Shown piece by piece: positions 27,312 to 62,450 of a DNA stretch of 64,000 nucleotides. The position numbers and the translations under genes are program-made. The notes under the pieces are model-generated. The model saw only the letters and a list, made by a program, of their open reading frames with translations. It ran no database searches and was not told the DNA's origin. Source of the stretch: Candidatus Doudnabacteria bacterium. Lineage in GTDB: Bacteria > Patescibacteriota > Doudnabacteria > UBA920 > VMFF01. Each line of letters opens with the position of its first letter. Within the stretch, counting starts at the first letter, position 1. The stretch covers positions 79,114 through 143,113 of the forward strand of contig JAQBQP010000001.1 of assembly GCA_028286905.1 (NCBI GenBank), in the 5' to 3' direction.

Positions 27312-27471
27312 TTTGATTTCGAATTAATGAACGATTTGCTCGGGATTCACTAACTTCCGGTCTTTGTACACGCGGTTAGAAGAAAGTATATACCCTCTGT
27401 CAACGTTGGGTCAAGGGTCAAGTTGAGGACGCAGAGTCAAGTAAATTGCTAAATAAATTGGTGGCAAAACA

Positions 27472-27503
27472 AAGACACCACTCTCAAAATCAAGAGTGGT
27501 GTC
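27472..27503 (-). terminator. Intrinsic terminator of GC-rich 241-aa gene
   Basis: AGACACCACTCT-caaaatcaa-GAGTGGTGTCT followed on minus strand by TTGTTTTG. Confidence 0.7.
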
Positions 27504-27531
27504 TAGGTTTTATGACAGATCCGGGCGGGAG

Positions 27532-28257
27532 CTAGGCGGACTTCACGGTGCTCTCGGCGACCTCTGCGTCCGCCTCCAGCGCGATCGCTAGCGAGGCGTT
27601 GAGCTTGCCGGCGATCAGCGCGCGGTCGATGATGCTCTCTTCGAGCAACGCGACGTTATGCGCGTGAACGGTCTCGACATGCGCACGAATCGCGGCGAAC
27701 ACCTCCTCGTTCTCGCGATCGAGCGAGTAGAACACATCGTTGTAGAGGACGCACATCTGCACCAGGTACTCCGACGACGCCAAGGTGTGCGCGGCGAGGA
27801 AGTCCTTGAGTGCTTTCAGCTTCAGCCGCGCGTTTCGCTCGTACTGACTGAGGTCCATAGCGTAGTTCTTGGAGAGCTGCTGCACGAACGTGCAGAAGCT
27901 CTCCACCTCCGAGCGCAGACCCTTGGCGTCCTTCATCGTGGCGCGCACGAACTTGAACTGCGCGACCATCAGGTCGTTGAGGATTTCCGGCAGCATCGTG
28001 TAGGCCTTCTGAAGATCTGCGAAATTGTCGGAACTGATGTCGGACCCGACCCGATTGATCGACTCCACAAGCTCGGGAGACAACACGAAGTCCTCGATTC
28101 GCGGCTCCGCCTGCTCGTCTTCCGGAAACAAGGCGGCGAGCTCGGTCGCGAGAGCGCTTGCACGCACCCGCATCTCGACGATCAGGAAGCGTGCACCTTC
28201 GATGTTCAGCGCAACGACGGGTGCGGGAAGCCGGCTCGCAAGGCTGAGATCTGTCAT
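27532..28257 (-). CDS. Hypothetical cytoplasmic protein (241 aa) in GC-rich islet; weak Rx6H (HEPN-like) motif near C-terminus
   Basis: Long ORF with ~62% GC and high GC3, start ATG 28257 preceded by GGAGGA 7 nt upstream (ORF-track upstream extension to 28323 lacks SD). Predicted all-alpha; no family recognised; IRAHVETVH resembles HEPN Rx4-6H. Confidence 0.55.
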   Translation of the reverse strand: MTDLSLASRLPAPVVALNIEGARFLIVEMRVRASALATELAALFPEDEQAEPRIEDFVLSPELVESINRVGSDISSDNFADLQKAYTMLPEILNDLMVAQFKFVRATMKDAKGLRSEVESFCTFVQQLSKNYAMDLSQYERNARLKLKALKDFLAAHTLASSEYLVQMCVLYNDVFYSLDRENEEVFAAIRAHVETVHAHNVALLEESIIDRALIAGKLNASLAIALEADAEVAESTVKSA

Positions 28258-28329
28258 GTGATCATTCCTCCGAATGAGGCCGCTTATCGCGGCGTTGTTG
28301 GGAACTGTTGGCGCAAAAACCAATTTGAT

Positions 28330-28358
28330 ATAGTACCATAAAAGTTATTTTTTGTCAA
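28330..28358 (-). promoter_or_regulatory. Consensus promoter TTGACA-17-TGgTACTAT for the 241-aa gene
   Basis: Read on minus strand: TTGACAaaaaataacttttatggTACTAT, same style as rnj promoter at 33633. Confidence 0.55.
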
Positions 28359-28367
28359 CACAATCAA

Positions 28368-28411
28368 AAAGCCGCCTCCTTTCTATCCGTAGATAGATTG
28401 GTGGCGGCTTT
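28368..28411 (-). terminator. Hairpin separating 69-aa ORF from downstream 241-aa gene promoter
   Basis: AAGCCGCC…GGCGGCTT 8-bp GC stem with inner TATC-cgta-GATA element, followed on minus strand by TTTTT. Confidence 0.55.
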
Positions 28412-28450
28412 CAGTTTACTCACTCGTGGCTTTGCTTGCTGCGCTGTCCC

Positions 28451-28660
28451 TTAGGACTTCAGCAGCGGCAGCCCGGCCATCGCCAGCATCGCCCGCTTCG
28501 AACGACGGATCCTGGTACCGCACTTCTGCGTACCGTTGGCGGTCGAACCCCTCGGCGCCGGATAGCGGCGACGCTCGGGCTGCTGAACGAGCAGCTGGAC
28601 CAGTACGATGCGGGTGATGCCGGCTTCCCGAACGACTTCGCGGCGCAGTGAGACTTTCAT
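28451..28660 (-). CDS. Small basic ORF (69 aa) in GC-rich islet, putative DNA-binding/regulatory protein
   Basis: ATG at 28660 with AAGGAG 7 nt upstream; GC3 ~75% in this frame only; overlapping 117-aa and plus-strand ORFs look like wrong frames. Confidence 0.4.
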   Translation of the reverse strand: MKVSLRREVVREAGITRIVLVQLLVQQPERRRYPAPRGSTANGTQKCGTRIRRSKRAMLAMAGLPLLKS

Positions 28661-28701
28661 GAATCTCTCCTTGAGATTTTGCTGCCTGAGGCAGCGGTGG
28701 C

Positions 28702-28727
28702 CCGAATATAACGACTGTTATATTCGG
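28702..28727. promoter_or_regulatory. Operator-like inverted repeat CCGAATATAAC-gact-GTTATATTCGG in 5' UTR of 69-aa ORF
   Basis: 11-bp perfect arms verified base by base; lies between a minus-strand TTGACA-17-TATCCT promoter (~28805-28835) and the ORF SD. Confidence 0.6.
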
Positions 28728-28901
28728 AATTCTTGTGGTGCAGGGGAAGGAATTGCGAAGAGGCCACAATAAAAATATATTAGCCCTCGCAACTCTTTTC
28801 CCAACACCATATCAAGATTTCTATAGGATACCAGAAACTTGTGTTTTTGTCAAGCTTATGTTCAAGTGCCAAAGAGTAATAAATACGCTATAATTCAAAG
28901 T

Positions 28902-30716
28902 ATGGCTTTAGATATCAAAGAAAAATTAAAGAATATTCCGCATAAACCTGGAGTTTACCTATTTAAAGGAAAGAATCAGGAGATCCTTTATGTTGGGAAA
29001 GCGAAGGATTTGAAGAACCGAGTTTCCCAATACTTCAGGAAGGAACACGACGGACGATTGCAAATCCCTTTTTTAATGCAGGATGTTACAGATTTCGAGC
29101 ACATCATTACCGACAACGATGTGGAGTGCTTGCTTTTAGAAAACACTTTGATAAAAAAATATAAGCCACGTTACAACATTAAATTACGTGATGATAAAAA
29201 TTATGCCTTTATAAAAATAGATTACGATTGTGAAATTCCACAGATATACACAATGAGAAACCCAGATTCTAAGAATGCTCGATATTTTGGACCATACTCC
29301 TCTGCTTTAAAGGTCCGAGAAACTTTAAATTTAGTTCGCAAAGTTTTTCCTTATTGTGCCAATAAGAAGGTAAGCAACCGTCCATGTTTTTATTACTATT
29401 TGCATCGCTGCCCTGGAGTTTGTATTGGTAAAATTTCACTTGAAGAATATCAGCAAACAATTCATAAGATTAGTTTGTTTATCGCCGGTAACATTTCTGA
29501 AGTTAAAAAAGATATCCAAAAGCAAATGCGTGAAGCCGCTTCACAAAAGCTTTTTGAACGAGCCGCTGATTTGCGCGATCAGATGCGCTCAATAGAAGTA
29601 GTTGAAGAGCGACAAAAAGCAATATTTGCAAAAAAGGTTGAATGGGATTTTATCTCTTATTTTCAAACTGCAGATAAATCTACTATTAATGTCTTTGTGA
29701 TTCGTGGAGGCAAAATGATCGATCGCAAAAACTTTATTTTAGAAGAGACCCAAAACAAATCTGGGTGTGATATTATTGATGCTTTTATGGAAAAATATTA
29801 CTTGGAAACTTCGGATCTACCAAGAGAGATATTTGTCCAGGAATTGCCGACGGATATTGAAATGATGGAGCGAGTGCTAAATGAAAAGAGCCAAAAGAAG
29901 CACAAGATTACAATCACCAAACCAAATCGTGCAAAAAAAGCCGAACTGATTACCTTAGGGATAGAAAATGCTAAAGAATATTTTGAGTCCTGGTCCCGAG
30001 ATCAAGTTTCTGAGCTTTCAAGAACAACTTTAGCGCTTGATGAATTGCAAAAAGTTTTGAAACTAAAAGAGACCCCTTTCAGAATAGAATGTTTTGATAT
30101 TTCAAATATTCAAGGTACTAACTCTGTAGCGAGCATGGTAGTATTTGAAAATGGCAAACCAAATCGTTCGCAGTACCGAAAATTTAAAATAAAAATAGAC
30201 GGTCAGCCAAATGATTTTGCAATGATGAAAGAAGCTTTAACTCGCCGCTTTCATCTTTCTCACCGGGAAGATACCGAGCAAAAGTGGCCTTTGCCTAACC
30301 TTTTAGTGGTTGATGGCGGAAAGGGTCAGCTAGGCATGGCGGTTGAAGTATTAAATGAATACGCTTTAGACATACCAGTTATTGGCCTAGCGAAACGCGA
30401 AGAAGAAATATTCTGGCCAGGCAAAGCTGAACCAATCTTATTGCCAAAATCAGATTATGCCTTACAGCTTTTACAACGTTTGCGTGATGAAGCGCATCGC
30501 TTTGCCATTACTTTCCATAAAAAACTTCGATCGAAACAAGCTTACCGATCCGTTCTCGATGACATTGCTGGCATTGGACCTAAAAAGAAAAAACTTCTTA
30601 TTAGAAAATATGGTTCGGTTGCGAACATAAAAAAACTAGCGAGCCCCGAAGAACTTTCGGAACTCGCTAGCTTAGTTGGCAAGACAGCCGCCGACGAACT
30701 AACCGCGAATTTGTAG
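28902..30716 (+). CDS. uvrC: Excinuclease ABC subunit C
   Basis: N-terminal GIY-YIG (PGVYLFKG…ILYVGKAKDLKNRV), UvrBC-binding, RNase H-like and C-terminal HhH; start MALDIKEKLK at 28902, TATAAT box 7 nt upstream (leaderless). Confidence 0.9.
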   Translation: MALDIKEKLKNIPHKPGVYLFKGKNQEILYVGKAKDLKNRVSQYFRKEHDGRLQIPFLMQDVTDFEHIITDNDVECLLLENTLIKKYKPRYNIKLRDDKNYAFIKIDYDCEIPQIYTMRNPDSKNARYFGPYSSALKVRETLNLVRKVFPYCANKKVSNRPCFYYYLHRCPGVCIGKISLEEYQQTIHKISLFIAGNISEVKKDIQKQMREAASQKLFERAADLRDQMRSIEVVEERQKAIFAKKVEWDFISYFQTADKSTINVFVIRGGKMIDRKNFILEETQNKSGCDIIDAFMEKYYLETSDLPREIFVQELPTDIEMMERVLNEKSQKKHKITITKPNRAKKAELITLGIENAKEYFESWSRDQVSELSRTTLALDELQKVLKLKETPFRIECFDISNIQGTNSVASMVVFENGKPNRSQYRKFKIKIDGQPNDFAMMKEALTRRFHLSHREDTEQKWPLPNLLVVDGGKGQLGMAVEVLNEYALDIPVIGLAKREEEIFWPGKAEPILLPKSDYALQLLQRLRDEAHRFAITFHKKLRSKQAYRSVLDDIAGIGPKKKKLLIRKYGSVANIKKLASPEELSELASLVGKTAADELTANL

Positions 30717-31451
30717 CTCCAATCCCTCAACTAGTGGCTGGTTTAGGGCCTCAATCATTGGAGGAGCGACTTGACTCAGATAGCCATACTTCGACTTTCT
30801 GAATCGCGCTTCAATCGAAGTGATCGCATCTGCATGCGAAACACCTGGATGAGAAGGGCCACGATACTCTCGCATTCCGACATAGATATCGACGAAATGC
30901 ACGATCGAGGCAAGCTTCAATTCACGAACTGCGTGAACCCGGTGAGAAATCTGCGCGAGCCTTTCGGGGGTGTGGTGATACCGTACCCCGAAACAAACGC
31001 TGCGCAAGGTTTTCCACTCCGCCTCGGTAAGACCCATACTGCTCCCCAGCTGGATCAGCATCACCTTCGAGAGTTTGGCATGACCCTCTTTGGCGGCGCG
31101 CTCCGATTCCGGCAATGGTCCCTCAATCCGATGACCATGCCAAACGGTCTTACTGAAGTCGTGCAGATAACCGATCAAACTGATCTTGTAAATCTCTTCC
31201 CTACCACACCCCAGCAAGTGGGCAATCACTTCGGAGTATAGTTCTACGTTCTCCAAGTGATCGGCCAGCAAAGCATTGTGGTATCCGGTACGCGGTTCAA
31301 TAAACTCCTGGTCATGTACATTGACCAACTCTTTCACCCGTGACTTCAGGCGAATGAGTCCAGGAGAATCGATACTGATGTGTCCGCGCCGCTCGACTTC
31401 GGGGGTATAGCAAAGAAAAGGGCCCAGCGCCGTCGGCTGTGTCTTGTTCAT
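30699..31451 (-). CDS. HD-domain metal-dependent phosphohydrolase (GC-rich islet)
   Basis: H…HD…H…H…D pattern (ADHLEN; IGYLHDFSK; HGHRIEG; EGHAKLS; HFVDIY); ~52% GC; AGGAGG 6 nt before ATG; 3' end overlaps uvrC by 18 nt (convergent). Confidence 0.6.
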   Translation of the reverse strand: MNKTQPTALGPFLCYTPEVERRGHISIDSPGLIRLKSRVKELVNVHDQEFIEPRTGYHNALLADHLENVELYSEVIAHLLGCGREEIYKISLIGYLHDFSKTVWHGHRIEGPLPESERAAKEGHAKLSKVMLIQLGSSMGLTEAEWKTLRSVCFGVRYHHTPERLAQISHRVHAVRELKLASIVHFVDIYVGMREYRGPSHPGVSHADAITSIEARFRKSKYGYLSQVAPPMIEALNQPLVEGLELQIRG

Positions 31452-31631
31452 TCGATCCTCCTAACAGGTATTACGCCCAAACTAACATACTCTTATTTTA
31501 ATGGAAAAATATTTTTCTACAACCTAGAGATTATTTATATAAAAAATCTCAATTGGTAAAATATTTTGGACAAAATACCTAGAGCGCGCTAACCTTTGAC
31601 TAAAAGCCCTTCTTTTGATACACTTTTCCAT

Positions 31632-31865
31632 ATGTCACATGCTCAAAAAATCTTAAGTTTAGTACAACTGGCTACAGGTGCTATCCTAGTTATTTCGATC
31701 TTAACCCAAAGCAAAGGCGTCGGTTTATCCAGCGTTTTCGGCGGAGCAGATACGGTGTACCGAACCAAGCGCGGATTTGAAAAATACCTCTTTTACGCAA
31801 CAATTGTTTTGGCGATCGGTTTCGTAGGCCTAAGCATCGCTGTTGTACTTGTCAGCAAGACCTAA
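31632..31865 (+). CDS. secG: Preprotein translocase subunit SecG
   Basis: Two TM helices and SecG motif KGVGLSSVFGGADTVYRTKRGFEK; likely start MSHAQKIL at 31632. Confidence 0.75.
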   Translation: MSHAQKILSLVQLATGAILVISILTQSKGVGLSSVFGGADTVYRTKRGFEKYLFYATIVLAIGFVGLSIAVVLVSKT

Positions 31866-33624
31866 AGTGCTTAGTAAAAAAATTCAAAATTTAACACTTG
31901 AACTTAAAAAGATAGGACGCGGAATTAAAAAACTGCGTTTTTTTAAGTTTACAGACCTACGTCGGATTTTTAGAGTATTTTCGTTTAGGGAAAAGGTTGT
32001 GGTTGGATTGTTATTTGCCTTACTACTTTCAGATCTGGTCTTTTTAGGAACGAACTTTTACATTGGCAAAACAAAGGTGGTCCCTGCTTATGGCGGAACA
32101 TATTCGGAGGGCGAGCTTGGTCAGCCTAGATATATCAATCCGCTGTTGGCCCAAAGTCAAAGTGACAAAGATTTGAGCAAGCTTGTTTACGCTGGACTCT
32201 ATAAATATGACCCTAACGGAAACTTCGTGCCTGATCTGGCAGAATCAGATCTTAAAATTTCTACCGACCAAAAACAATATACAGTTAAATTAAAATCAGG
32301 TTTGAAATGGCAAGACGGCAAACCAATTAATGCCGATGATGTTGTTTTTACAATTCAATTATTGCAAAATCCGGATTATAAAAGCCCATTAAGAAAACTT
32401 TGGCAAAATATTCAAACCAAAAAGATCGATGATTTAACGATTACGTTTACCAATCCAGATATTTCAGCACCATTCCTCACCAATCTTACATTAGGAATCC
32501 TACCGGCACATATTTGGTCCGGAATAGCTGCAAATAATTTTTACTTCGCTAAAGAAAACCTTGAACCAGTAGGAAGTGGTGCCTATTTCATTAAAGAAAT
32601 TAGCAAATCAGTAAGTGGCGATATTCGCACAATAACTTTAAATTCCTGGTCTAATTACTATTCTGGTCGCCCTTACATCGATGTGGTGGTACTAAAATTT
32701 TACACTGATTATGAATCGATGCTCTCCGGTTTTCATACCAAGGAAGTAGATGCAATTGGTTTTATCCCTTTCGACAAAAAGATTTTTGTGGATATGAACC
32801 GATCCAACATTCAAGTAAGTAAAATTCCAGTTTATCAATACCAGGCTTTGTTCTTCAACCTCTCTAAAAGCTCAAAGGTTTTGGGAGACTTAACTGTGCG
32901 CAGTGCGCTGGCTCAAAGCATTGATCGAAATGCTTTCATTCAAGACGTTTACTCTGGCCTAGCCTTGCCAGCGGAGACTCCCATTCTTCCAGGACAATTA
33001 GGATACACTTCTACAACAATTAGCTTTAACCCGAATGCTGCTGAAACAGCTTTGGACAAAGCTGGTTGGGTCAAAAACGCCCAAACCGGCATGCGTGCAA
33101 AAGGCAATGTTGCATTAAAGTTTACGATTACAACAAACGATTTCGTACTGAACGTTAAAAGCGCGGAAAATTTACAACAGCAATGGAAGAAAATTGGTGC
33201 AGATATTACTGTTACAGTAGTCCCTACTTCGGAATTAGAAAACAACTATTTGCGCAACAGAAATTTTGAGTCTTTATTATTTGCTGAAAGCACAGGATAT
33301 GACCCTGATCCCTTTGTTTTTTGGCATTCCTCCCAAAGCGCTAACCCGGGTTTTAACATTGCCCAATACAAAAACACCACCATCGATAAACTGATTACCC
33401 AAGCACGAAGTACTTTCGACAAAACCCAGCGCAGCAGCGATTATAACCAATTTCAAAATATTTTCATCCAAGATCTTCCTGCAATAATTTTGGATCAAAG
33501 CGTTTTCGTATACGAAACCCGACCAAATGTTCAAGGTTTAAGCCTTAAATATCTCGCAAACCCAGAAGATCGATTCTACGATATCAGCCATTGGTATGTC
33601 TCAACAAAGCGCTCCTGGAAATAG
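31843..33624 (+). CDS. ABC transporter substrate-binding protein, family 5 (oligopeptide/dipeptide-type), TM-anchored
   Basis: N-terminal TM anchor then SBP_bac_5-like fold (YINPLLAQSQSD…, KLKSGLKWQDGKPINADDVVFT); start codon uncertain (TTG in ORF track). Confidence 0.7.
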   Translation: MYLSARPKVLSKKIQNLTLELKKIGRGIKKLRFFKFTDLRRIFRVFSFREKVVVGLLFALLLSDLVFLGTNFYIGKTKVVPAYGGTYSEGELGQPRYINPLLAQSQSDKDLSKLVYAGLYKYDPNGNFVPDLAESDLKISTDQKQYTVKLKSGLKWQDGKPINADDVVFTIQLLQNPDYKSPLRKLWQNIQTKKIDDLTITFTNPDISAPFLTNLTLGILPAHIWSGIAANNFYFAKENLEPVGSGAYFIKEISKSVSGDIRTITLNSWSNYYSGRPYIDVVVLKFYTDYESMLSGFHTKEVDAIGFIPFDKKIFVDMNRSNIQVSKIPVYQYQALFFNLSKSSKVLGDLTVRSALAQSIDRNAFIQDVYSGLALPAETPILPGQLGYTSTTISFNPNAAETALDKAGWVKNAQTGMRAKGNVALKFTITTNDFVLNVKSAENLQQQWKKIGADITVTVVPTSELENNYLRNRNFESLLFAESTGYDPDPFVFWHSSQSANPGFNIAQYKNTTIDKLITQARSTFDKTQRSSDYNQFQNIFIQDLPAIILDQSVFVYETRPNVQGLSLKYLANPEDRFYDISHWYVSTKRSWK

Positions 33625-33632
33625 TAGATATA

Positions 33633-38661: not shown

Positions 38662-38989
38662 AAATTAAGTATACCAGAAAAACGAAACGTCCTTGCATGC
38701 TGAGTTGCAAGGACGTCAAAAGGGTTGTGGTTACTAGGAACAGCGGTAAATCACGATCCGCTTTGGCAGACCGAGATGGATCACCTCCTCCAGGAGTGGC
38801 TGGACATAACTCGATTTCTCGAGGTATGCCGGAAATTTGCACCGCGCGCGATCTGGAGAACACGCATCCAGTTTCTACGCTTGTTCGAATGCAAGCCTCT
38901 TCCCATGTGTGATACCGGTTAGGGTGACTAACTATTCCTCCATACAAATGTCGTACCTTTAAATTGTAAATTGCTTAGAATAAAAAAAC

Positions 38990-39027
38990 AAGGGGTTCAT
39001 GATGCATCGTCGCATCACGAACCCCTT
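38990..39027 (-). terminator. Intrinsic terminator of GC-rich 137-aa gene
   Basis: AGGGGTTCATGATGC-loop-GCATCACGAACCCCT (one mismatch) followed on minus strand by GTTTTTTTATT. Confidence 0.65.
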
Positions 39028-39053
39028 CACAGCAGTACGACGTTCACAACACG

Positions 39054-39467
39054 TCAGCTCCAGACCGGCTTTCCGGTTTTCGTCAGCCCCATCTCCCTGC
39101 GAAGTGCATTGCAGGAGAATGTCCGCTCACGAACATGGCCGCAAACCGAAATCTTCAGCTTAACGTGGCGGACGCCGACTGCTTCCGCTCCAATCAGGCC
39201 ACGACCGTGTGTACCCAAGCAGTAGCATGTAGCTGCTCGAGCAATCGGTAAGGCCCAGTTCATCTGTACACCCATCGGACTGTGTCTGCCGAGATCGCGA
39301 ATGACCTGGTGAACTTCACGATCGAATGCCTTGTTCAATTCCTCCCTGGAAATATTGTTACCTGCGTCTGAAGTTGGCAGAGTGCCAACTCCGCTGATAC
39401 CCTTGGTCGAGGCGGGATGCCCTTCTCCGTTTAGGAAGAGCATTGAGGACCCTGGGTTCACCAGCAT
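39054..39467 (-). CDS. Hypothetical Cys/His-containing protein (137 aa) in GC-rich islet
   Basis: ~55% GC ORF with GGGAG upstream of ATG and its own terminator; Gly-rich N-half, C-half has CYCLGTHGRG … VCGHVRERTFSCN; no family recognised. Confidence 0.45.
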   Translation of the reverse strand: MLVNPGSSMLFLNGEGHPASTKGISGVGTLPTSDAGNNISREELNKAFDREVHQVIRDLGRHSPMGVQMNWALPIARAATCYCLGTHGRGLIGAEAVGVRHVKLKISVCGHVRERTFSCNALRREMGLTKTGKPVWS

Positions 39468-39568
39468 TGTGCAGCTCCCGGAAACTGGCCCGATCTAGGA
39501 AAGGGGTCTGCGCGGTGGACCAGGCTAGAACCGCCGCAGATAGGGACTTCACAATACTACGCCCGGGG

Positions 39569-39597
39569 TTGAGATTAGTCAACACTCCTGATATAAT
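39569..39597 (+). promoter_or_regulatory. Consensus promoter TTGAGA-17-TATAAT; -10 ends 6 nt before ychF ATG (leaderless mRNA)
   Basis: Hexamers and spacing read directly. Confidence 0.65.
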
Positions 39598-39603
39598 CTC
39601 TGC

Positions 39604-40662
39604 ATGTCATTTAAAATTGGTATCGTCGGTTTACCAAACGTCGGTAAATCTACTCTCTTTAACGCCATTACAAAGAGCAAAGTCGAGGCGGCTAACTACC
39701 CTTTCGCAACAATCGACCCAAACGTCGGTGTTGTTGCAGTGCCTGATGAACGTTTAGCCAAACTTTCTGCTCAAGAAAACTCTGCAAAGATTGTACCTAC
39801 TGTTATTGAGTTTGTAGACATCGCCGGTTTAGTTGCTGGAGCACACAAGGGCGAAGGCTTGGGAAACAAATTTTTAGCGAACATTCGCGAAGTGGATGCA
39901 ATCATGGAAGTGGTGCGATTTTTTGAAGATAAGAATATTATTCACGTTTCAAACACTGTTGATCCGAAAAGAGATGTCGATACAATTGCCATTGAACTTG
40001 GTTTGGCCGATTTACAAACAGTGGAAAAACGTTTGGAAACCGTAACTAAAGAAGCAAAACAAGGAAACAACCGCGAAGCGGTGCAAAAGAAACTGGCTTT
40101 AGATAAATTTCAAAAAGTCTTGGCTGACGGTTTAATGGCTTCTGAAGCAGTCTTAACTGATGAAGAACAGAAGGCTGTAAAAGAGTTACAACTCTTAACA
40201 ACGAAACCGTTTTTATATGTTGCAAATGTCGCAGAAGATGAGGTAGTAAAATTTACGGATCAAAGCTTTATTCCAATCTCCGCAAAAATTGAGAGCGAGC
40301 TTTCAGAGCTGCCAGACGAAGAAAGAGATATCTACTTAAAAGAGTTAGGTATGAATGAATCTGGCTTAGATAAAATTATTCGAACTGCTTATAAAACTTT
40401 GGGGTTAATTACGTTTATAACGGCTGGTCCGATTGAATCAAAGGCTTGGACGGTACCCGCTGGAACGAAAGCCCCCCAAGCGGCAGGTGTAATCCATACA
40501 GATTTTGAAAAAGGTTTTATTCGGGCTGAAGTAATTGCTTGGGACAAACTATTGGAAGCAGGCGGCTATGCTGTAGCAAGAGATAAAGGCTGGCTGCGCG
40601 TTGAAGGTAAAGAATATGTCATGCAAGATGGAGATGTCGTCCATTTTAGAGTAAACGCTTAA
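39604..40662 (+). CDS. ychF: Ribosome-binding ATPase YchF (Obg-family)
   Basis: [24 protein letters not shown]-loop, coiled-coil insertion, C-terminal TGS domain ([10 protein letters not shown]). Confidence 0.92.
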
Positions 40663-47134: not shown

Positions 47135-47428
47135 ATGATTATCGTTCAAGATACATTTGTTTGTAAACCCGGGAGTGCCTCTAAGGTGGCCAAGCTATTT
47201 AAAGAGGTTATGTCTGGGGATGGCGAAGTAATGCATATTATGAGTGATATGACCGGTCAGTTTAATCGAGTCGTAATGGTTTCAAAATATGAAAGCTTAA
47301 CCGCATACGAAGAAGCTTTCAAAAAATATATGAACCCAACGCCTGAGATGAAGGAAGCAATGTCAAAAATGGAAGGTTATCAAGAAATGTACCAAACAGG
47401 CAGTCGAGAAATATTCAAGGTTTGGTAA
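47135..47428 (+). CDS. ABM-like (antibiotic biosynthesis monooxygenase/Dabb fold) small protein
   Basis: 97 aa; MIIVQDTFvcKPG…Y-ESLTAYEEAF pattern of dimeric alpha+beta barrels; AAAGGAG SD; own terminator. Confidence 0.45.
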   Translation: MIIVQDTFVCKPGSASKVAKLFKEVMSGDGEVMHIMSDMTGQFNRVVMVSKYESLTAYEEAFKKYMNPTPEMKEAMSKMEGYQEMYQTGSREIFKVW

Positions 47429-49670: not shown

Positions 49671-49699
49671 TTGCCAAATAGTCCTCCTTATGATATATT
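49671..49699 (+). promoter_or_regulatory. Promoter TTGCCA-17-TGaTATATT for GC-rich membrane-protein gene
   Basis: Read from sequence; leader carries GAGGAGG SD. Confidence 0.5.
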
Positions 49700-49754
49700 C
49701 AGAAATCGGCTAAGCATTGAGCTTAACCACAACCTGAATACCTGAGGAGGATTC

Positions 49755-50372
49755 ATGTTTTCATTGAGCGGAGTTGTTAACGTTATTTCCAAAGACGTAC
49801 TGGTCTGGGGAACCTTCTTGGTGTTCCTGGAAGCATTCTGGGCCTACATGGATCGGATGCTGACGGCCGGCCAAATGCGCAACCGCGGCTTCTTTCGTGG
49901 AATTCCATTCCTGCCGCATCCGGCTTGCTGGGCGGACCTGCTGATCTTCACGCCGCTGATAGCATACCTCTACGGTCGATTCGGATCGACCTGGACGGCT
50001 AGGGAAAGTCTGGTCTGTATGCTGATTGCTCTCTTCATCTGCTACGGCATGACCAAGATGTGGATCGAGGGCGGACTGGAAATCCCGGACTTTGCCACTT
50101 ATCACCACGAGCTGACATTAGCGGGCTGGTTACACACGCTGTATTTCTGGGCGGCATTTGTCGCGGTACTGCTGTTCGCGAACACACCAAACGTCCCCCG
50201 CACCGAATCAGCAATCCTGTTGTCGATCATCGCCGTGCATGTCACCGCTGGAACCGTCTGGCCGAACATCTACACCCGTCGGCCGGCGTTTCCAAGGTCG
50301 ACGGTAGCCACACTGCTTCCCTGCTACGCGTTGATCGCCGCGACTTGGTTCTACCAGGCACATCATCGGTAG
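49755..50372 (+). CDS. Hypothetical integral membrane protein (205 aa, 4-5 TM) in GC-rich islet
   Basis: ~57% GC ORF, GAGGAGG SD, aromatic-rich TM helices; no family recognised. Confidence 0.55.
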   Translation: MFSLSGVVNVISKDVLVWGTFLVFLEAFWAYMDRMLTAGQMRNRGFFRGIPFLPHPACWADLLIFTPLIAYLYGRFGSTWTARESLVCMLIALFICYGMTKMWIEGGLEIPDFATYHHELTLAGWLHTLYFWAAFVAVLLFANTPNVPRTESAILLSIIAVHVTAGTVWPNIYTRRPAFPRSTVATLLPCYALIAATWFYQAHHR

Positions 50373-50404
50373 TTCCCGCTAGCCGCCGTATTCAATGAAA
50401 AAAC

Positions 50405-50450
50405 AAAAAGAGAGAAGTAACTCGCCGATCGGGCTTGTGCTTCTCTCTTT
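50405..50450. terminator. Bidirectional terminator (12-bp stem AAAAGAGAGAAG/CTTCTCTCTTTT with 22-nt loop containing CCGATCGG)
   Basis: Stem checked base by base; T-run on minus side serves the convergent surface-protein gene. Confidence 0.65.
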
Positions 50451-55986: not shown

Positions 55987-56013
55987 ATTTGAGACCTATC
56001 ATCCAATGGCTAT

Positions 56014-57602: not shown

Positions 57603-57760
57603 ATTGTTGATTGGTGGTTACGGTTTTATACATGTATTATACAAACGTACAAAAGAACGTCTGTTGTACATATCATACAATATAATAGCAATTAATTATA
57701 CTAATTTGTCCTAAGCATACAACTAATTTTAATACTTTTATACAAAAAATACTTTAAATT

Positions 57761-58777
57761 ATGATCATATTAGCAATAGAAACATCTTGCGACGAGACCG
57801 CAGCAGCTGTGGTTAAGACCCAAAAAAGCGTTATTAAGCCTTTAAGCAGCGTCGTTTCTAGCCAAATTCCTTTACATCGAAAGACCAGAGGTGTTGTTCC
57901 CGAAGTAGCGGCAAGAGCGCATATTCGCAAAATTAACGCGGTTGTTAAAAAAGCCTTAACAGATGCTCGTATAGGGCTAAAATCTATTGATTACCTAGCA
58001 GTAACTAATGGTCCTGGTCTAATTACTTCTCTATTAATAGGCACCGAATATGTTAAAGCTTTGAGCTTAGCCATAAATAAGAAAATCATCCCTACCAACC
58101 ATATGTCTGGGCATCTTTATTCTGCTTTTTTACAAAACCCGCAGCTAAAGCTCCCAAGCATTAATTTGATCGTTTCAGGCGGCCACACTTATATTGTTTT
58201 ATTAGCTTCAAAAAACAAAATTAAAATTATCGGCCAGACAATTGATGATGCAGCCGGTGAAGCATTCGATAAGGTTGCTCGAATGCTAGAGTTACCTTAT
58301 CCTGGCGGACCAGAAATTTCGAAAGCAGCATTACATGGAAAAAGAGATTATGATTTTCCAAGACCAATGCAATATACCAAAGATTACAATTTCAGCTTCG
58401 CTGGATTAAAGACAGCAGTCTTATATAAAATTAGAGATGAGAAGTTAAAGATGTCAGATCCACAAGTAGTTGCTGACCTAGCTTTTTCTTTTCAGAATGC
58501 TGCTGTAGATGTGCTTGTAGCAAAAACAATCCGCGCTGCAAAACAATACAAAGCAAAAAGCATTACTTTATCGGGTGGAGTAGCCGCTAATAAAAAACTG
58601 CGCAAAGATCTAGGGGACGCCGCCAAAAAGGAAAAACTTAAATTGTACGTGCCCGATTTTAAACTTTGCACCGACAATGCATTGATGATTGCAAACGCAG
58701 CAGCAATAAAGCTTCAAGGCGGTTTTAAACCGGTTAATTATACAAAGGTTAAAGTTAATCCAGGCCTAGAAATATAA
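57761..58777 (+). CDS. tsaD: tRNA N6-adenosine threonylcarbamoyltransferase TsaD
   Basis: MIILAIETSCDETAAAVV start, ASKAS/HSGG-family metal-binding motifs (HMSGHLY). Confidence 0.9.
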   Translation: MIILAIETSCDETAAAVVKTQKSVIKPLSSVVSSQIPLHRKTRGVVPEVAARAHIRKINAVVKKALTDARIGLKSIDYLAVTNGPGLITSLLIGTEYVKALSLAINKKIIPTNHMSGHLYSAFLQNPQLKLPSINLIVSGGHTYIVLLASKNKIKIIGQTIDDAAGEAFDKVARMLELPYPGGPEISKAALHGKRDYDFPRPMQYTKDYNFSFAGLKTAVLYKIRDEKLKMSDPQVVADLAFSFQNAAVDVLVAKTIRAAKQYKAKSITLSGGVAANKKLRKDLGDAAKKEKLKLYVPDFKLCTDNALMIANAAAIKLQGGFKPVNYTKVKVNPGLEI

Positions 58778-58784
58778 AAGGAAA

Positions 58785-58813
58785 GCGGCGTGTTCTCAAA
58801 GAGAACACGCCGC
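58785..58813. terminator. Perfect 13-bp GC-rich hairpin GCGGCGTGTTCTC-aaa-GAGAACACGCCGC
   Basis: T-run only on minus-strand side, so probably terminates the minus-strand 127-aa gene. Confidence 0.6.
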
Positions 58814-58832
58814 TAGTACTAACCGTCACGCC

Positions 58833-59216
58833 TCATGCGACCGCGGTGGCGGGGCTGGCTGACCTCCTGACAGCCAAGCTGGTTGGAGGAACGCGCCCCG
58901 CCAAAGCACTCCCCACGCTCGCTTGAACGGCGCCGGGACTTCGATCGGTCGAGCCAGTACTCCAGCAGGAAAACCTGCTGAGGTACAAGTTATGGGTTGT
59001 CAGGGCTGGCCGGATCATACTTGTCGGCTCGAGGATCGGTACATACTCGTCGGTCAATGGACTCGTGAGAGGCATCAACGGATGAGTGTAAACGATCGAC
59101 GAACTGACCGGAACCGTGCTAGCGCCGACGTTCGTAGCAGGTACTCCCGCTGCGATCAAACACATCGCAGCGATTGAACAAGCTACGCGAACCCGGGGTG
59201 ACACTAACTTCATCAC
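58833..59216 (-). CDS. Small secreted hypothetical protein (127 aa) in GC-rich islet
   Basis: AAGGAGGTG SD 2 nt before ATGATG; Sec-type signal peptide (MMKLVSPRVRVACSIAAMCLIAAGVPATNVGA); Ser/Thr/Pro-rich mature part; ~57% GC. Confidence 0.45.
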   Translation of the reverse strand: MMKLVSPRVRVACSIAAMCLIAAGVPATNVGASTVPVSSSIVYTHPLMPLTSPLTDEYVPILEPTSMIRPALTTHNLYLSRFSCWSTGSTDRSPGAVQASVGSALAGRVPPTSLAVRRSASPATAVA

Positions 59217-59494
59217 ACCTCCTTGGTGGATGCTGCAGCTGACCTGCGCGTAAAAACACTATAAGCTAAAAACGACTGCGGGTCAAATGCCACAAAACCT
59301 CATCTTTACAGGGTCAAAAGTATCTGGTAACCTATGAATAAGCCTAATCCGGCGTCACCGGATCTCTAATATAGAGGGGCGTGGAAAGAGCCTTGCAGCA
59401 AGCAAGGTGTAGACTCCACCGCTATCCCGCGTAACAGGAATGATTAAGTAATAAATCAAGTTGGTACCTCGCCTTTGCAATTAACGGCGAACTT

Positions 59495-59520
59495 GAGCAC
59501 CTTTGGTGCTTTTTATTTTT
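59495..59520 (+). terminator. Hairpin plus U-tract 12 nt before valS ATG (attenuator-like element in ~300-nt GC-rich structured leader)
   Basis: GAGCACC-ttt-GGTGCTT followed by TTTTATTTTT; leader 59230-59530 also has ATCCGG-cgtca-CCGGAT hairpin. Confidence 0.5.
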
Positions 59521-59531
59521 GGAAAAATATT

Positions 59532-61715
59532 ATGACAGAAAATTCAAACGAGAAATTAGACGAGATGGCTTCTTCCTACGACTCCCGCGCTACAGAGGAT
59601 GCTATTTATAAACTTTGGGAAGATTCCGGATTTTTTAATCCTGACAATCTTACGGGCGAACCTTTCAGTATGATGTTGCCTCCACCAAATGTCACAGGGA
59701 CTTTGCATATAGGCCACGCCTACGAAGAAACCCTTCAAGACATTGTCATCCGTTTTCAAAGGATGCAGGGCAAGAAAGTTTTGTGGCTTCCAGGGACTGA
59801 CCATGCGCCAATTGCTACTGAGTCTAAAGTGGTTAAGCTTTTAGAAAAAGAAGGTAAAAGAAAAACCGATTTCACCCGAGAAGATTTTCTAGCAAGAGTA
59901 AATAAATTTGCTCAAGAAAGCCATGACACAATAGTAAATCAAGTTAAAAAACTTGGTGCTTCTTTAGACTGGAGTCGCGAAGCTTATACCTTTGATGAAA
60001 AAAGAAACTTTGCAGTTAGAACTGCCTTCAAAACGATGTACGACTTAGGTTTAATATATCGTGGCGATCGAGTTATAAATTGGGACCCAAAAGGTCAGAC
60101 AACAATTTCGGATGACGAAATTGTCCATGAAGAACGCAAGGCTAAAATGTATACTTTCAAATACAGTGCGGACTTCCCTATTTCGATTTCTTCGACCCGA
60201 CCGGAAACTAAAGTTGGCGACGTTGCAGTTGCCGTTCATCCTGCTGACGACCGCTATAAACAATTTGTTGGCAAGGAATACGATGCGATTTTCTGCGAAG
60301 TTCCAATCCATATTAAAATTATTGCTGACGAAAGCGTAGAAAAAGATTTTGGCACCGGCGCTTTAGGTGTTACCCCTGCACACTCAATGATCGATTATGA
60401 AATTGCTCAAAGACATAATCTTCCACTTAAAACAGTTATTAATGAGTTCGCAAAGATGACGGTAGAAGGCCTTTTGAAAGATAAAAAAACTACGGACGCA
60501 CGGGAAATTGTTGTTGAATGGTTACGCTCTCAAAATCTTCTGGAAAAAGAAGAAGAGGTTGTTCAAAACGTCTCTACTTCGGAGAGAACTGGCGCAGTAA
60601 TTGAACCTTTGCCAAAACTACAATGGTTTATAGATGTAAATAAGGACTTTGCTTTCCCACACTCCGAATTAGCGGGAATCAAACAAGGTGACGCAATTAG
60701 CTTGAAAAAGCTAATGCGTCAGGTCGTGGAAAGTGGCGCAATTAAATTTAGCCAAGAAAATTATCAAAAAGTTTATTTTAATTGGATTAACAATCTTAGG
60801 GACTGGTGTATTAGCAGGCAAATCTGGTTTGGCCATCGTATCCCAGTGTGGTATAAAGATTCGGAAATTTACTGCGGCATAGAAGCTCCTACTGGTGAAG
60901 GTTGGACTCAGGATTCAGACACCTTAGATACTTGGTACTCATCCGGACTCTGGACGACTAGCACCTTGGGTTGGCCGGAACAAACTAAAGATTTCAAAAC
61001 TTACCATCCAACTTCTTTGGTAATGCCGGGCTATGAAATTCTGTTCCCCTGGGTTGCTCGGATGATTTTAATGACAACTAGTTTAACCGGACAAATCCCT
61101 TTTAAAGAAGTTTTACTGCATGGAATTGTTCGCGACAATAAAGGTAGAAAATTTAGTAAGTCTTTAGGTAATGGTGTAGACCCTTTAGAAATAATTGAGC
61201 AGTACGGAGCTGACGCTTTGCGGATTGCTTTAATTTTTAGCACTGCTCCCGGTAACGATGTAATATTTGACGAGCAAAAAGTTAAAGGAATGAAGCATTT
61301 CGCAAACAAGATTTGGAATATTGCGAGATTTGTTTTAGCAAACACCGATACTGCTTTAATGAACACAACTAGTTCCAGGAAACCAGAAGGCCTAACAGAA
61401 GCTGACAAGGAGGTATTGGCAAAGCTAGATGAGGTTGTGATTGCAACAACTGCGCACATTGAAGCATCCCGTTTCCACGAAGCGGCTCAAGCTTTATACC
61501 AATTTGCTTGGTACGAATTTGCAGATAAATACATTGAGGCGAGCAAAGAACAATTGTTGGATGCAAATCAGAAAGAAAACACACAAAAGATTCTGCTTTA
61601 CAATTTGGATGTAACACTACGTTTATTGCATCCGTTCATGCCGTTCGTCACCGAAGAACTTTGGAAAAATCTAAAGAAAGAGAAGCTGCTGTTAATAAGC
61701 GAGTGGCCTAAATAG
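59532..61715 (+). CDS. valS: Valyl-tRNA synthetase (short, CPR-type)
   Basis: HIGH (TGTLHIGHAYEET), KMSKS (KFSKSLGN), editing domain; 727 aa. Confidence 0.9.
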   Translation: MTENSNEKLDEMASSYDSRATEDAIYKLWEDSGFFNPDNLTGEPFSMMLPPPNVTGTLHIGHAYEETLQDIVIRFQRMQGKKVLWLPGTDHAPIATESKVVKLLEKEGKRKTDFTREDFLARVNKFAQESHDTIVNQVKKLGASLDWSREAYTFDEKRNFAVRTAFKTMYDLGLIYRGDRVINWDPKGQTTISDDEIVHEERKAKMYTFKYSADFPISISSTRPETKVGDVAVAVHPADDRYKQFVGKEYDAIFCEVPIHIKIIADESVEKDFGTGALGVTPAHSMIDYEIAQRHNLPLKTVINEFAKMTVEGLLKDKKTTDAREIVVEWLRSQNLLEKEEEVVQNVSTSERTGAVIEPLPKLQWFIDVNKDFAFPHSELAGIKQGDAISLKKLMRQVVESGAIKFSQENYQKVYFNWINNLRDWCISRQIWFGHRIPVWYKDSEIYCGIEAPTGEGWTQDSDTLDTWYSSGLWTTSTLGWPEQTKDFKTYHPTSLVMPGYEILFPWVARMILMTTSLTGQIPFKEVLLHGIVRDNKGRKFSKSLGNGVDPLEIIEQYGADALRIALIFSTAPGNDVIFDEQKVKGMKHFANKIWNIARFVLANTDTALMNTTSSRKPEGLTEADKEVLAKLDEVVIATTAHIEASRFHEAAQALYQFAWYEFADKYIEASKEQLLDANQKENTQKILLYNLDVTLRLLHPFMPFVTEELWKNLKKEKLLLISEWPK

Positions 61716-61732
61716 GTCGCATTAATAGTCCA

Positions 61733-61759
61733 AAACACCGCTCCCAATAGGCGGTTTTT
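61733..61759 (+). terminator. Intrinsic terminator after valS
   Basis: AACACCGC-tcccaatag-GCGGT followed by TTTTTGG. Confidence 0.6.
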
Positions 61760-61762
61760 GGT

Positions 61763-61791
61763 TTGACTTTGATAAAAATTTCTTCTATACT
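61763..61791 (+). promoter_or_regulatory. Promoter TTGACT-17-TATACT for GC-rich 154-aa gene
   Basis: Read from sequence; ~85-nt leader with GAGGTG SD. Confidence 0.5.
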
Positions 61792-61878
61792 CCTATATCG
61801 TTCTAGTTCGAAAAACGCCAAGGAGGCCTCATAGATAACAACAAAGGTCTCTGGCAACCCACTTTCTCGAGGTGCAGA

Positions 61879-62343
61879 ATGCGTAAGTACTTAGGGACTC
61901 TATTTTTAGTTAGCTTGATCGTGATGATAGGCGTCTCGGCCTTAGTCCTCAGATCGTCGCCTAAACCTGGCAGCCGCCTTGCTCTGCAGCATCAATGGGC
62001 AGATTCATCGCGGCTCTCTGGACGAGAGATCAGAGTTCTTGCAATGATCCCTGACACCGCGCGCTGCGCAAACTTCTACAACTCGCTCAATCGCCTGGGT
62101 TGGGTCCTGCTTCAGACAGAGAGCGATGACTCCAGCTTCTACTCTCATATGACCAAGGAGGATTACGCCCGTGCCGCCCGAACAATCGTGGAGCGCGACA
62201 GCGCCTACCGGCAGCTGTGCACGAGTAACCGTACATTCGTAGCGACCCAGAAATACAAGCTTGCAGTCGCGCGCGCAAGGGAGGTGCTTGACCTGGAGAA
62301 AGCCTACTACGCGGCGTTAACCAACTCGAGCAGCTTGCGGTAG
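61879..62343 (+). CDS. Hypothetical membrane-anchored protein (154 aa) in GC-rich islet
   Basis: N-terminal signal-anchor/TM (LGTLFLVSLIVMIGVSALVL) then soluble alpha-helical domain; ~56% GC; own promoter and terminator. Confidence 0.5.
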   Translation: MRKYLGTLFLVSLIVMIGVSALVLRSSPKPGSRLALQHQWADSSRLSGREIRVLAMIPDTARCANFYNSLNRLGWVLLQTESDDSSFYSHMTKEDYARAARTIVERDSAYRQLCTSNRTFVATQKYKLAVARAREVLDLEKAYYAALTNSSSLR

Positions 62344-62371
62344 ATACACCCGCGCCGATGTTGTTACAACG

Positions 62372-62402
62372 AAAACGCCCCGACTTGCAATCGGGGCGTT
62401 TT
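62372..62402. terminator. Bidirectional GC-rich terminator shared by the 154-aa gene and convergent rpoC
   Basis: AAAACGCCCCGA-cttgcaa-TCGGGGCGTTTT. Confidence 0.75.
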
Positions 62403-62450
62403 GTTATTTATCAACAGTTTATACCGTAGGGTTGATACCTAGGGTGAACC

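Follow-up and report, generated by a model that had tools for sequence, protein, structure and literature searches.

GC-rich, moron-like single-gene cassettes between core genes of a Candidatus Doudnabacteria genome

We examined a 64-kb stretch of a Candidatus Doudnabacteria metagenome-assembled genome (MAG; contig JAQBQP010000001.1), hereafter the window, in which short GC-rich segments, or islets, lie among conserved genes. The overall GC content of the window is 0.409. When GC content was followed in 200-bp windows and at least 50% GC over a long stretch (600-1400 bp) was required, exactly six segments were found. They are the same six that a preliminary description of this DNA had reported, and the region from 1 to 27 kb contained none. 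The genes flanking the islets were identified by Pfam and gene calls as uvrA, uvrC, secG, pgm, ychF, a zf-UBP gene, a gene for an fn3/ASH surface protein, tsaD, a class-I aminoacyl-tRNA synthetase (aaRS) gene and rpoC, in agreement with the names given earlier. The six segments are as follows.

27401-28800, islet 1, GC 0.565
30651-31450, islet 2, GC 0.525
38701-39650, islet 3, GC 0.517
49701-50450, islet 4, GC 0.541
58701-59300, islet 5, GC 0.540
61851-62650, islet 6, GC 0.531

The GC boundaries are abrupt and match the limits of transcription units, with only a faint shoulder in GC content at third codon positions (GC3) at the ends of the flanking genes (0.40 vs 0.33). Islet 5 had been drawn too wide: the segment at 58701-59300 is GC-rich as described, but 59.3-59.5 kb belongs to the aaRS gene as its leader and is not part of I5. 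Similarly, where a single open reading frame (ORF) per islet had been described, we recognized about eight transcription units, with two cassettes in islet 1 (I1a and I1b) and two units in islet 3 (I3a and I3b).

The compositional deviation of the islet genes is large. Their GC3 values are 0.835 (I1a), 0.786 (I1b), 0.578 (I2), 0.587 (I3b), 0.699 (I4), 0.630 (I5) and 0.671 (I6), while the 55 backbone genes have a mean of 0.357 with a standard deviation of 0.032 and a maximum of 0.423. The islet ORFs are thus 6.9-14.9 standard deviations above the backbone, and the high GC3 and outlier status proposed in the preliminary description were borne out. Both G and C are raised. At fourfold degenerate sites, C and G make up 0.32 and 0.33 in the islets vs 0.20 and 0.14 in the backbone; at twofold sites, C/(C+T) is 0.66 vs 0.38 and G/(A+G) is 0.73 vs 0.30. 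The proteins follow the same trend, with an Arg/Lys ratio of 2.1 vs 0.49, more Ala and less Ile and Asn. GC3 is not high in the ribosomal protein, RpoC and SSB genes of the window. The shift is global and is the signature of evolution under GC pressure rather than of codon selection matched to tRNAs. As in a classical genomic island, the composition of the islets deviates from that of the host genome.

The units within the islets are listed below. Energies (dG, in kcal/mol) are for pairing of the Shine-Dalgarno (SD) sequence with the anti-SD. Promoters and terminators are consensus matches from scans and are putative as functional sites.

27473..28358 (-), I1a cassette, promoter-like TTGACA-17-TACTAT at 28358..28330
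28257..27532 (-), I1a ORF, 241 aa, all-helical, acidic; leader about 66 nt with GGAGGA SD, dG -14.8
27504..27473 (-), I1a terminator hairpin
28368..28853 (-), I1b cassette, promoter-like TTGACA-17-TATCCT at 28853..28825
28660..28451 (-), I1b ORF, 69 aa, very basic; AAGGAGAG SD, dG -9.1
28368-28412 (-), I1b hairpin
30633..31451 (-), I2 cassette, between uvrC and secG; AGGAGG SD, dG -11.0
31451..30699 (-), I2 ORF, 250 aa, divergent HD-like; convergent 18-nt overlap with the uvrC stop
30673..30633 (-), I2 terminator, 18-bp hairpin within the uvrC 3' coding end
38680..38935 (-), I3a, unit of about 250 nt bounded by a terminator and lying between pgm and I3b; hairpin at 38717..38686
38990..39582 (-), I3b cassette, promoter-like TTGACT-17-TAGTAT at 39582..39554, divergent from and overlapping the ychF promoter
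39467..39054 (-), I3b ORF, 137 aa; leader about 80 nt with a hairpin; GGGAG SD, dG -7.3
39027..38990 (-), I3b terminator, 17-bp
49671..50450 (+), I4 cassette, promoter-like TTGCCA-17-TATATT at 49671-49699; GAGGAGG SD, dG -12.1
49755-50372 (+), I4 ORF, 205 aa, at least three hydrophobic helices by hydropathy
near 50409-50450 (+), I4 long-loop hairpin followed by a T-run, read from the sequence
58784..59286 (-), I5 cassette, promoter-like TTGACC-17-TATAGT at 59286..59258; AAGGAGG SD, dG -15.3
59213..58833 (-), I5 ORF, 126 aa, N-terminal hydrophobic/lipobox-like segment, Pro/Ser/Ala-rich
58814..58784 (-), I5 terminator, 14-bp
61763..62402 (+), I6 cassette, promoter-like TTGACT-17-TATACT at 61763-61791; leader about 80 nt; GAGGTG SD, dG -9.6
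61879-62343 (+), I6 ORF, 154 aa, N-terminal membrane anchor or signal by hydropathy
62372-62402 (+), I6 terminator

I2, I4 and I6 carry the NCBI locus tags JWO40_98, JWO40_119 and JWO40_128. The preliminary description placed all islets strictly in intergenic gaps; I2 departs from this, with an 18-nt overlap at the uvrC stop and a terminator hairpin placed within the 3' coding end of uvrC. Of the islet ORFs, I5 is the most doubtful: it shows no codon-position GC periodicity, it is uncalled in a contig of an independent assembly (Logan), and its exact sequence is missing from the protein collection. I3a has a GGAGGA motif, yet there is no properly placed start codon and no convincing ORF. Its folding z score is -3.3 with the terminator included, and it was not found in any sibling locus examined. 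I3a is possibly a small RNA, or else a cassette in decay.

The expression signals of the islet genes differ from those of their neighbors. The anti-SD duplex energy averages -11.3 kcal/mol in the seven islet genes, compared with -1.8 kcal/mol in 44 native genes with ATG starts (Mann-Whitney p = 1.7e-5), and only one of these 44 reaches -8 or below. Native genes (e.g. 36295, 37276(-), 39604, 55180 and 28899) are essentially without SDs. The contrast in SD strength noted in the preliminary description is therefore sharper than first stated. Since a few native genes have canonical, weaker SD-like motifs, such as AAAGGAGC located 7 nt upstream of the ATG at 47135, this organism can probably use SD pairing. 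It was reported that the anti-SD motif is lost in about half of Parcubacteria; Doudnabacteria are unmentioned there (PMC9297842). A TATAAT-like box ends 4-12 nt 5' of the start codon in 12 of 45 native genes, and this suggests that leaderless mRNAs are widespread among the native genes of this genome. For the islet genes, leaders of about 40-160 nt are predicted from promoter-like sites. Such sites, with 9-10 of 12 matches and 17-nt spacers, were found 5' of I1a, I1b, I3b, I4, I5 and I6, so that the promoter claimed for each islet holds for six of the seven ORF cassettes and not for I2, which had no promoter-like site in the scans. Likewise, strong terminators consisting of a hairpin and a T-run were found 3' of I1a, I2, I3a, I3b, I5 and I6, while I1b and I4, to which the earlier claim of a terminator extended, are not among them.

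Relatives of the islet proteins were sought in two very large collections. A k-mer-indexed search of 5.8 billion clusters with I1a, I2 and I4 as queries returned one relative of I2 (P0002, 52% identity) and no relative of either I1a or I4. Six islet proteins, joined into a single query, were run by exhaustive phmmer against 1.84 billion representatives, and matches were assigned by query coordinates. This second search gave about 300 remote relatives of I4 with 25-37% identity and no Pfam match. Among the best 150 of its 310 matches were one full-length relative of I1a (P0016, 27-28%) and one of I3b (P0080, 35-37%); in the same 150, I1b and I6 matched only themselves and I5 matched nothing, such that weak relatives of I1b, I5 and I6 (E ~6e-8 to 1e-3) are possible. 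The relatives of I1a, I2 and I3b are encoded at the same positions as in the window. In sibling contigs L002 and L003, the gene for P0002 occupies the secG/uvrC gap and again overlaps the end of uvrC. P0016 lies between uvrC and uvrA in the 429-kb contig L165, accession JAXOUH010044171.1, whose layout is secG, an I2-like gene (47%), uvrC, the I1a-like gene and uvrA. P0080 lies between ychF and pgm in L166, where an HD-like protein with 20% identity to I2 is encoded between secG and uvrC. The convergent overlap of this slot with uvrC is kept in L002, L165 and L166.

The composition of these relatives was conserved along with their position. GC3 is 0.77 for the I1a-like gene of L165 in surroundings of about 0.45, 0.69 for the I3b-like gene of L166 in surroundings of about 0.38, and 0.55-0.70 for the I2-like genes in surroundings of 0.36-0.53. 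All three kinds carry GGAGG-type SDs in the siblings and their neighbors do not. Hence the cassettes keep high GC3, a preference for Arg over Lys and an SD in every genome in which we found a relative, as judged from sequence comparison. The preliminary description had raised the prospect of sibling genomes with the same genes at ordinary GC; this is not what we observed because the copies in the siblings are GC-rich as well. For I1a, I2 and I3b, no relative outside a context resembling the candidate phyla radiation (CPR) was seen among the 1.84-5.8 billion proteins, and with positional orthologs in Doudnabacteria as the only relatives, no donor lineage emerged. The I4 relatives that were looked up occur in four other contigs, three of which are CPR-like in gene content. 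In L169, L170 and L171 their GC is above that of the neighbors, while in L167, a 3-kb contig, all three genes are GC-rich. L169, a CPR-like contig with 50% GC and few SDs, has three consecutive GC-rich genes at 677-1950 (GC3 0.74-0.82), each with a strong SD, including the I4-family member. At 8798-13053 of L171, a low-GC CPR-like contig, FGAR-amidotransferase genes (purL/purQ-type) with GC 0.48 vs about 0.30-0.35 lie beside an IS200-type Y1 transposase, and this block looks like a separate acquisition.

We compared the divergence of the cassettes with that of the genes around them. Between the window and the siblings, identities are 28% for I1a, 47-52% for I2 (20% in L166) and 37% for I3b, while the flanks show 91% for UvrA, 81-82% for UvrC, 83-93% for RNase J, 91% for YchF and 59-61% for Pgm. 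Pgm is unusually divergent between the window and its closest siblings. The window, L002 and L165 are mutually equidistant, with UvrA at about 91%, UvrC at about 80-82% and I2 at 47-52%, and the same equidistance in backbone and I2 fits vertical descent on a faster clock. The protein in the secG/uvrC slot of L166 is only 20-24% identical to the I2 proteins. This is much more divergence than the backbone distance predicts and suggests replacement. When the whole I3b cassettes of the window and L166 were aligned as DNA, the divergent promoter shared with ychF was about 90% identical, the SD was conserved, all indels in the ORF were multiples of three, and the terminator kept its loop with compensatory changes in the stem. 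The I3b leader hairpin (39500-39545 (-) in the window; ~4905-4940 in L166) is also kept through compensatory changes, with a GC-rich stem CUGCGGCGG/CCACCGCGCAG in the window and an AT-rich one CCAUUAAG/CUUAAUGG in L166. This hints that the leader may be a structured regulatory 5' untranslated region (5'UTR). The I1a cassettes of the window and L165 agree in ORF length and terminator position, and the region of the SD and start is kept. For a uvrA/uvrC islet gene common to L084 and L085, the ratio of nonsynonymous to synonymous divergence (dN/dS) is 0.09, and its dS of 0.87 is near the 0.72-0.81 of its flanks. By these sequence comparisons, the cassettes are protein-coding genes under purifying selection whose divergence outpaces that of their flanks by several-fold to over ten-fold, and at least I1a, I2 and I3b were inherited in place across deep divergence.

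Such deep residence bears on how composition should have changed. Identity at backbone fourfold sites between the window and L002, L165 or L166 is 0.30-0.44, with a chance level that we estimated from fourfold base composition as about 0.27-0.30. In a two-state model of our own calculation, at most about 0.44 of an initial compositional excess would be left per lineage. Given a GC3 excess of +0.2 to +0.48 and fourfold sites that are nearly random, neutral decay would require an ancestral GC3 greater than 1. On this calculation, the excess has been maintained or renewed.

The slots themselves were studied more broadly in siblings. A scan anchored on RNase J gave 80 sibling loci with the conserved order uvrA-uvrC-secG-SBP-rnj-trpS-pgm-ychF-rpsF-ssb, and islets were counted in the 63 loci that reach 5 kb or more, together 790 kb. 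We counted 61 GC-rich islets, 54 of them between anchor genes, and similar islets occur in 37 of these 63 loci, which come from other samples. The density was 0.77 per 10 kb in the siblings, 1.0 in low-GC loci and 0.94 in the window. The gaps uvrA/uvrC, uvrC/secG, pgm/ychF, trpS/pgm and SBP/rnj hold unrelated GC-rich ORFs or are empty. Presence is patchy, as in genomic islands: islet 1 is absent in L002 and I2 is absent in L084 and L085, while orthologs occur in L002, L165 and L166, which answers the presence/absence comparison suggested in the preliminary description. When the islet proteins were compared by tblastn and jackhmmer with ORFs in the same gaps of the 80 sibling loci, only the I2 of L002 was found, and when every sibling ORF was searched with family hidden Markov models (HMMs), L165 and L166 were the only additions. 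About 20 of 29 sibling islet proteins examined had no Pfam match. The others include a TonB C-terminal-domain (TonB_C) protein (L099 6313-7077), a KDPG/KHG aldolase (L103 6528-7373), an enoyl-ACP-reductase-type (FabI-type) SDR (L149 1983-2768), a SLOG cluster-4 protein (L117 35-571) and a cytidine/dCMP deaminase-like protein (L119 9306-10004). Membrane or secreted proteins make up 11 of 33 sibling islet proteins, which is not clearly above a normal proteome.

Some slots change together with their neighbors. Between L085 and L086, dS is 2.4 for pgm and 2.1 for the adjacent pgm/ychF islet gene, but 0.7 for rnj and trpS. Since pgm and the islet gene are co-divergent relative to rnj and trpS, a segment consisting of pgm plus the islet appears to have been replaced by recombination. 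The breakpoint of this mosaic lies between trpS and pgm. Across siblings L084-L163 with shared synteny, GC ranges from 0.39 to 0.60 for the locus and from 0.37 to 0.61 for the anchor genes, with the top value in L122; such a wide range at fixed synteny indicates that genome GC evolves quickly in this clade while gene order is fixed.

No islet protein scored above threshold in Pfam, PADLOC, PHROGs or NCBIfam, and searches against PDB sequences gave sub-threshold matches only. This agrees with the earlier statement that the islet proteins belong to no nameable family apart from one HD hydrolase, I2. The HD assignment itself fell below threshold in every library. I2 had no Pfam match at E <= 0.1, PF01966 (HD) included; it scored 16.5 bits against the HDIG model (cutoff 27.6; E 0.006), E 0.0015-0.008 against PADLOC Cas3-HD models and E 0.14-0.23 against HD-GYP proteins in PDB. 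These weak signals are mutually consistent over residues ~58-162. There is a candidate H..HD..H..D pattern, in which H58, D64/H65, H97-D98, H124, H159-H160 and D188 do not differ between I2 and P0002; L165 retains most of these residues. The slot protein of L166 has a weak precomputed PF01966 match. AlphaFold2 models of I2 (two-sequence alignment; pLDDT 44) and I1a (single sequence), with pLDDT 44-45, were unusable, that of I2 being too poor to check the geometry of the pattern. The Cas3-HD matches of I2 were the only ones to defence models, as the check suggested earlier revealed, and none of the islet proteins gave a significant match to a PADLOC model. The cassette proteins likely have independent accessory functions, with a multi-pass membrane protein, an HD-type phosphohydrolase, two proteins that are secreted or anchored and three small cytosolic ones predicted from their sequences. 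The suggestion that the islets form a dispersed, functionally linked system was not supported, for each cassette is gained and lost on its own in the siblings, no DNA module is common to them, and none matches a defence model above threshold.

Signatures of mobility were likewise absent. There was no integrase or transposase gene, adjacent tRNA or direct repeat in or near the islets, and no DNA module or target-site duplication was shared between islets, the only repeats being internal hairpins. Rfam at its gathering threshold identified two tRNAs in the whole window (17.9 and 43.8 kb), both away from the islets. PHROGs gave nothing significant, and IMG/VR was without relatives of the I1a, I2 and I4 families (I3b was not scanned). 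Integron gene cassettes were considered and rejected: all but one of the seven ORF cassettes carry a promoter-like site in the scans, the T-tailed 3' hairpins of the cassettes are mutually dissimilar and the window has no integrase. A structured RNA was also considered for 58.7-59.6 kb, where an Rfam search by E-value returned only a chance match to Pxr on a terminator.

Several further features were noted around the islets. The I1b leader of about 160 nt contains a perfect palindrome, CCGAATATAACGACTGTTATATTCGG, with 11-bp arms at 28702-28727, which looks like an operator; neither L002 nor L165 has I1b. On the left border of islet 1 (27385-27450), upstream of uvrA, there are four close GTCAA(G) motifs (minus-strand TTGAC, -35-like), and the islet-free sibling L002 keeps only the innermost pair. 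The 3' stretch of uvrC carrying the I2 terminator encodes LASPEELSELAS, and UvrC of the window has a 3-residue insertion at this site relative to L002. The aaRS leader (59290-59535) is long, with a terminator-like hairpin at 59495-59511 just 5' of the start and a T-box-like GGTACC motif; Rfam showed no T-box match upstream of this gene (58.7-59.6 kb) even at E <= 1.

How did such genes come to lie among core genes? The abrupt compositional switches and the MAG origin could point to DNA of a high-GC organism mis-joined into a low-GC contig, as the preliminary description had considered. However, an independent Logan assembly (SRR13312974) has identical junctions, with islets 1-3 on a 16.8-kb contig and tsaD-aaRS-I6-rpoC, including the I5 interval, on a 21-kb contig (L164), both in the same gene order. 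This check covers islets 1-3, 5 and 6, islet 4 being just beyond the stretch fetched. In addition, I2 shares coding sequence with uvrC and has its terminator inside it, I3b and ychF share a divergent promoter, and orthologous cassettes occur at the same junctions in contigs from other samples. The cassettes are real DNA, and a chimera or contamination is refuted for practical purposes. Alternatively, each islet could be a single gene, imported lately from a donor with high GC and SD usage (for instance the host of an episymbiont) and not yet ameliorated. Indeed, GC3, amino-acid usage and SDs are all foreign-like, as first described; presence is patchy; TonB_C, KDPG aldolase, FabI-type reductase and SLOG genes of non-CPR type sit in sibling slots; and I1b, I5 and I6 could be recent as they have no relatives among the matches listed. 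CPR bacteria are naturally competent, and islands of horizontally transferred genes have been reported in Patescibacteria (PMC12455944). Nevertheless, I1a, I2 and I3b are positional orthologs with a conserved cassette architecture at near-saturated divergence, GC-rich and SD-led in each genome, and the lack of a homolog from any non-CPR organism among the 1.84-5.8 billion proteins would be unexpected for a recent import from a common cellular donor. The promoters are native in style, that of I3b being shared with ychF, and the islets lack an integrase, tRNA, direct repeats and shared ends. Recent acquisition of the whole set is already contradicted for these three cassettes, as is the transfer from host to symbiont suggested for them earlier. 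We regard this explanation as unlikely overall, even though the more general idea of horizontally acquired cargo retains some support from the foreign-like, patchy and import-like features above.

A different possibility is that the slots are recombination hotspots at which alleles are swapped through homologous flanks from a GC-rich pool, so that the slot is old and the copy is young. Doudnabacteria siblings of the same synteny range from ~37-39% to 60-61% GC, pgm and its islet differ in dS from rnj and trpS between L085 and L086 (~2 vs 0.7), the HD protein of L166 diverged beyond prediction, the same gaps hold unrelated occupants, and the flanking gene ends show the faint GC3 shoulder. Yet the family HMMs find no members of I1a, I2 or I3b in high-GC sibling loci, the three I2 proteins are equidistant as their flanks are, the islet and flanks of L084 and L085 have equal dS, and leaders and terminators evolve in place with compensatory changes. 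Moreover, the gene pool itself would need a force that keeps its GC high. Continual renewal by such swapping therefore seems improbable to us as the full explanation. GC-biased gene conversion, or local GC-ward mutation at recombination hotspots, would account for both high GC and fast divergence, and it agrees with the GC-ward shift at synonymous and non-synonymous sites alike and with signs of recombination at fast-diverging loci. On the other hand, sharp boundaries set by the transcripts and nearly no spill-over into the flanks argue against diffuse, recombination-driven conversion. Conversion through heteroduplexes is impossible between alleles only 20-50% identical, there is no strand asymmetry, and to our knowledge nothing reported for bacteria approaches an effect of +0.2 to +0.48 in GC3. 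We consider such biased conversion very unlikely.

On balance, we lean towards the interpretation that the islets are autonomous, moron-like monocistronic cassettes in long-lived variable slots, and that their deviant composition has been maintained or renewed instead of ameliorating. Each cassette would combine a GC-rich ORF with a sigma70-type promoter, a leader that carries a strong SD, and an intrinsic terminator, and would be lodged where core-chromosome operons of this Doudnabacteria lineage meet. The occupants of the slots would be inherited and occasionally lost, replaced or gained, sometimes along with a flanking gene by recombination. The cassette families probably entered, or arose in, the clade from a GC-rich source that uses SDs. 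Their composition would since have been actively held while the synonymous sites of the backbone turned over almost completely. The holding force would most likely be selection on the transcript and on leadered, SD-dependent expression, unlike that of the core genes, which lack SDs and often look leaderless. Allele exchange among Doudnabacteria may contribute as a process of renewal.

Several observations weigh against the interpretation of maintained cassettes in old slots. The TonB_C, KDPG aldolase, FabI-type, SLOG and deaminase islets of the siblings are probably imports from non-CPR bacteria, implying that ongoing horizontal gene transfer (HGT) contributes to the slots. A scan for contigs anchored on TsaD found only distant relatives (at most 54% identity) with no synteny for islets 4-6, and no relatives of I1b, I5 or I6 were among the best 150 of 310 phmmer matches; I1b, I5, I6 and islets 4-6 could be recent arrivals. 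ORFs of sibling islets have stronger SDs than the backbone (median dG -10.7 vs -4.1 kcal/mol; 69% vs 9% reach -9; p = 1e-14), but this comparison is partly confounded, as GC-rich sequence yields stronger anti-SD duplexes. The 3' end of the 16S rRNA, which holds the anti-SD, was sought in 173 fetched sequences and was not found. Because synonymous sites are saturated, the dS of I2 and its dN/dS of ~0.16 are rough values. The amelioration argument assumes that backbone GC3 is the neutral equilibrium. The folding z scores of three transcripts (-2.6, -2.6 and -4.4) are inflated by the terminators included in them, and there is no direct evidence for any selective agent.

The cassettes share features with several known kinds of accessory DNA. 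Phage morons, a concept of Hendrix and Juhala, are promoter-ORF-terminator units between genes that are adjacent in relatives, with deviant composition and variable presence. The window cassettes similarly show a promoter, an ORF and a terminator of their own, as consensus matches, between conserved neighbors, differ from these in composition and vary among relatives. Unlike morons, they are flanked by core genes (uvrA, uvrC, secG, pgm, ychF, tsaD, aaRS and rpoC), prophage genes are absent, IMG/VR yielded no relatives of I1a, I2 or I4, and several are positionally conserved orthologs across deep divergence. In HGT hotspots or genomic islets, associated with Oliveira et al. 2017, accessory content is reportedly concentrated in a few core-gene intervals. 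The slots here resemble them in this concentration and in having differing occupants, no mobility genes and signs of recombination via the flanks, but their units are single-gene, complete expression cassettes whose orthologous occupants keep composition and SD without amelioration. The amelioration model of Lawrence and Ochman is said to predict that atypical composition fades in old residents; our islets match its islands in their strongly deviant GC3 and codon usage, but they keep the excess even though backbone fourfold sites are near random. The ORFans of Daubin and Ochman are said to be short, lineage-restricted, fast-evolving and typically AT-rich relative to the genome. The cassette genes are also short, lineage-restricted, fast-evolving and family-less, but they are markedly GC-rich and have the strongest SDs in the region. 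The portions of PMC12455944 on gene transfer describe HGT islands and transferred genes in Patescibacteria, mostly exchanged among Patescibacteria, with competence and recombination genes present. Both cases concern regions of CPR genomes attributed to HGT; single-gene, SD-led and persistently GC-rich cassettes at conserved positions are not described in those portions. Single-gene cassettes that are SD-led, stay GC-rich and hold their position did not turn up in our literature search.

It is conceivable, though doubtful, that the genome has two expression regimes, namely an AT-rich, SD-less core whose genes often look leaderless and a set of dispersed, fast-evolving cassettes that are GC-rich, leadered and SD-dependent, and that selection keeps the deviant composition as a heritable trait of the cassettes. 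Such a trait might, for example, let transcripts escape AU-directed RNases or be translated when conditions differ; in an extreme form resembling T-DNA, the genes would be built for the ribosomes of a GC-rich, SD-using host. If this were true, composition would mark function and not recent ancestry, contrary to the use of GC3 as a clock for HGT.

Atypical GC, GC3 and SD usage are routinely read as recent transfer or filtered out as contamination of MAGs. Here the same signature is found on genes that have long resided in fixed slots while nearly all neighboring synonymous sites turned over. If this holds genome-wide, filters for HGT or contamination that are based on composition would mishandle real lineage-specific gene content of CPR bacteria, and selection or renewal would be holding single genes 20-45 GC3 points above their genome, which the amelioration framework does not predict. 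These fast-evolving and partly envelope-located proteins would then be prime candidates for functions at the interface of episymbionts with their hosts or phages.

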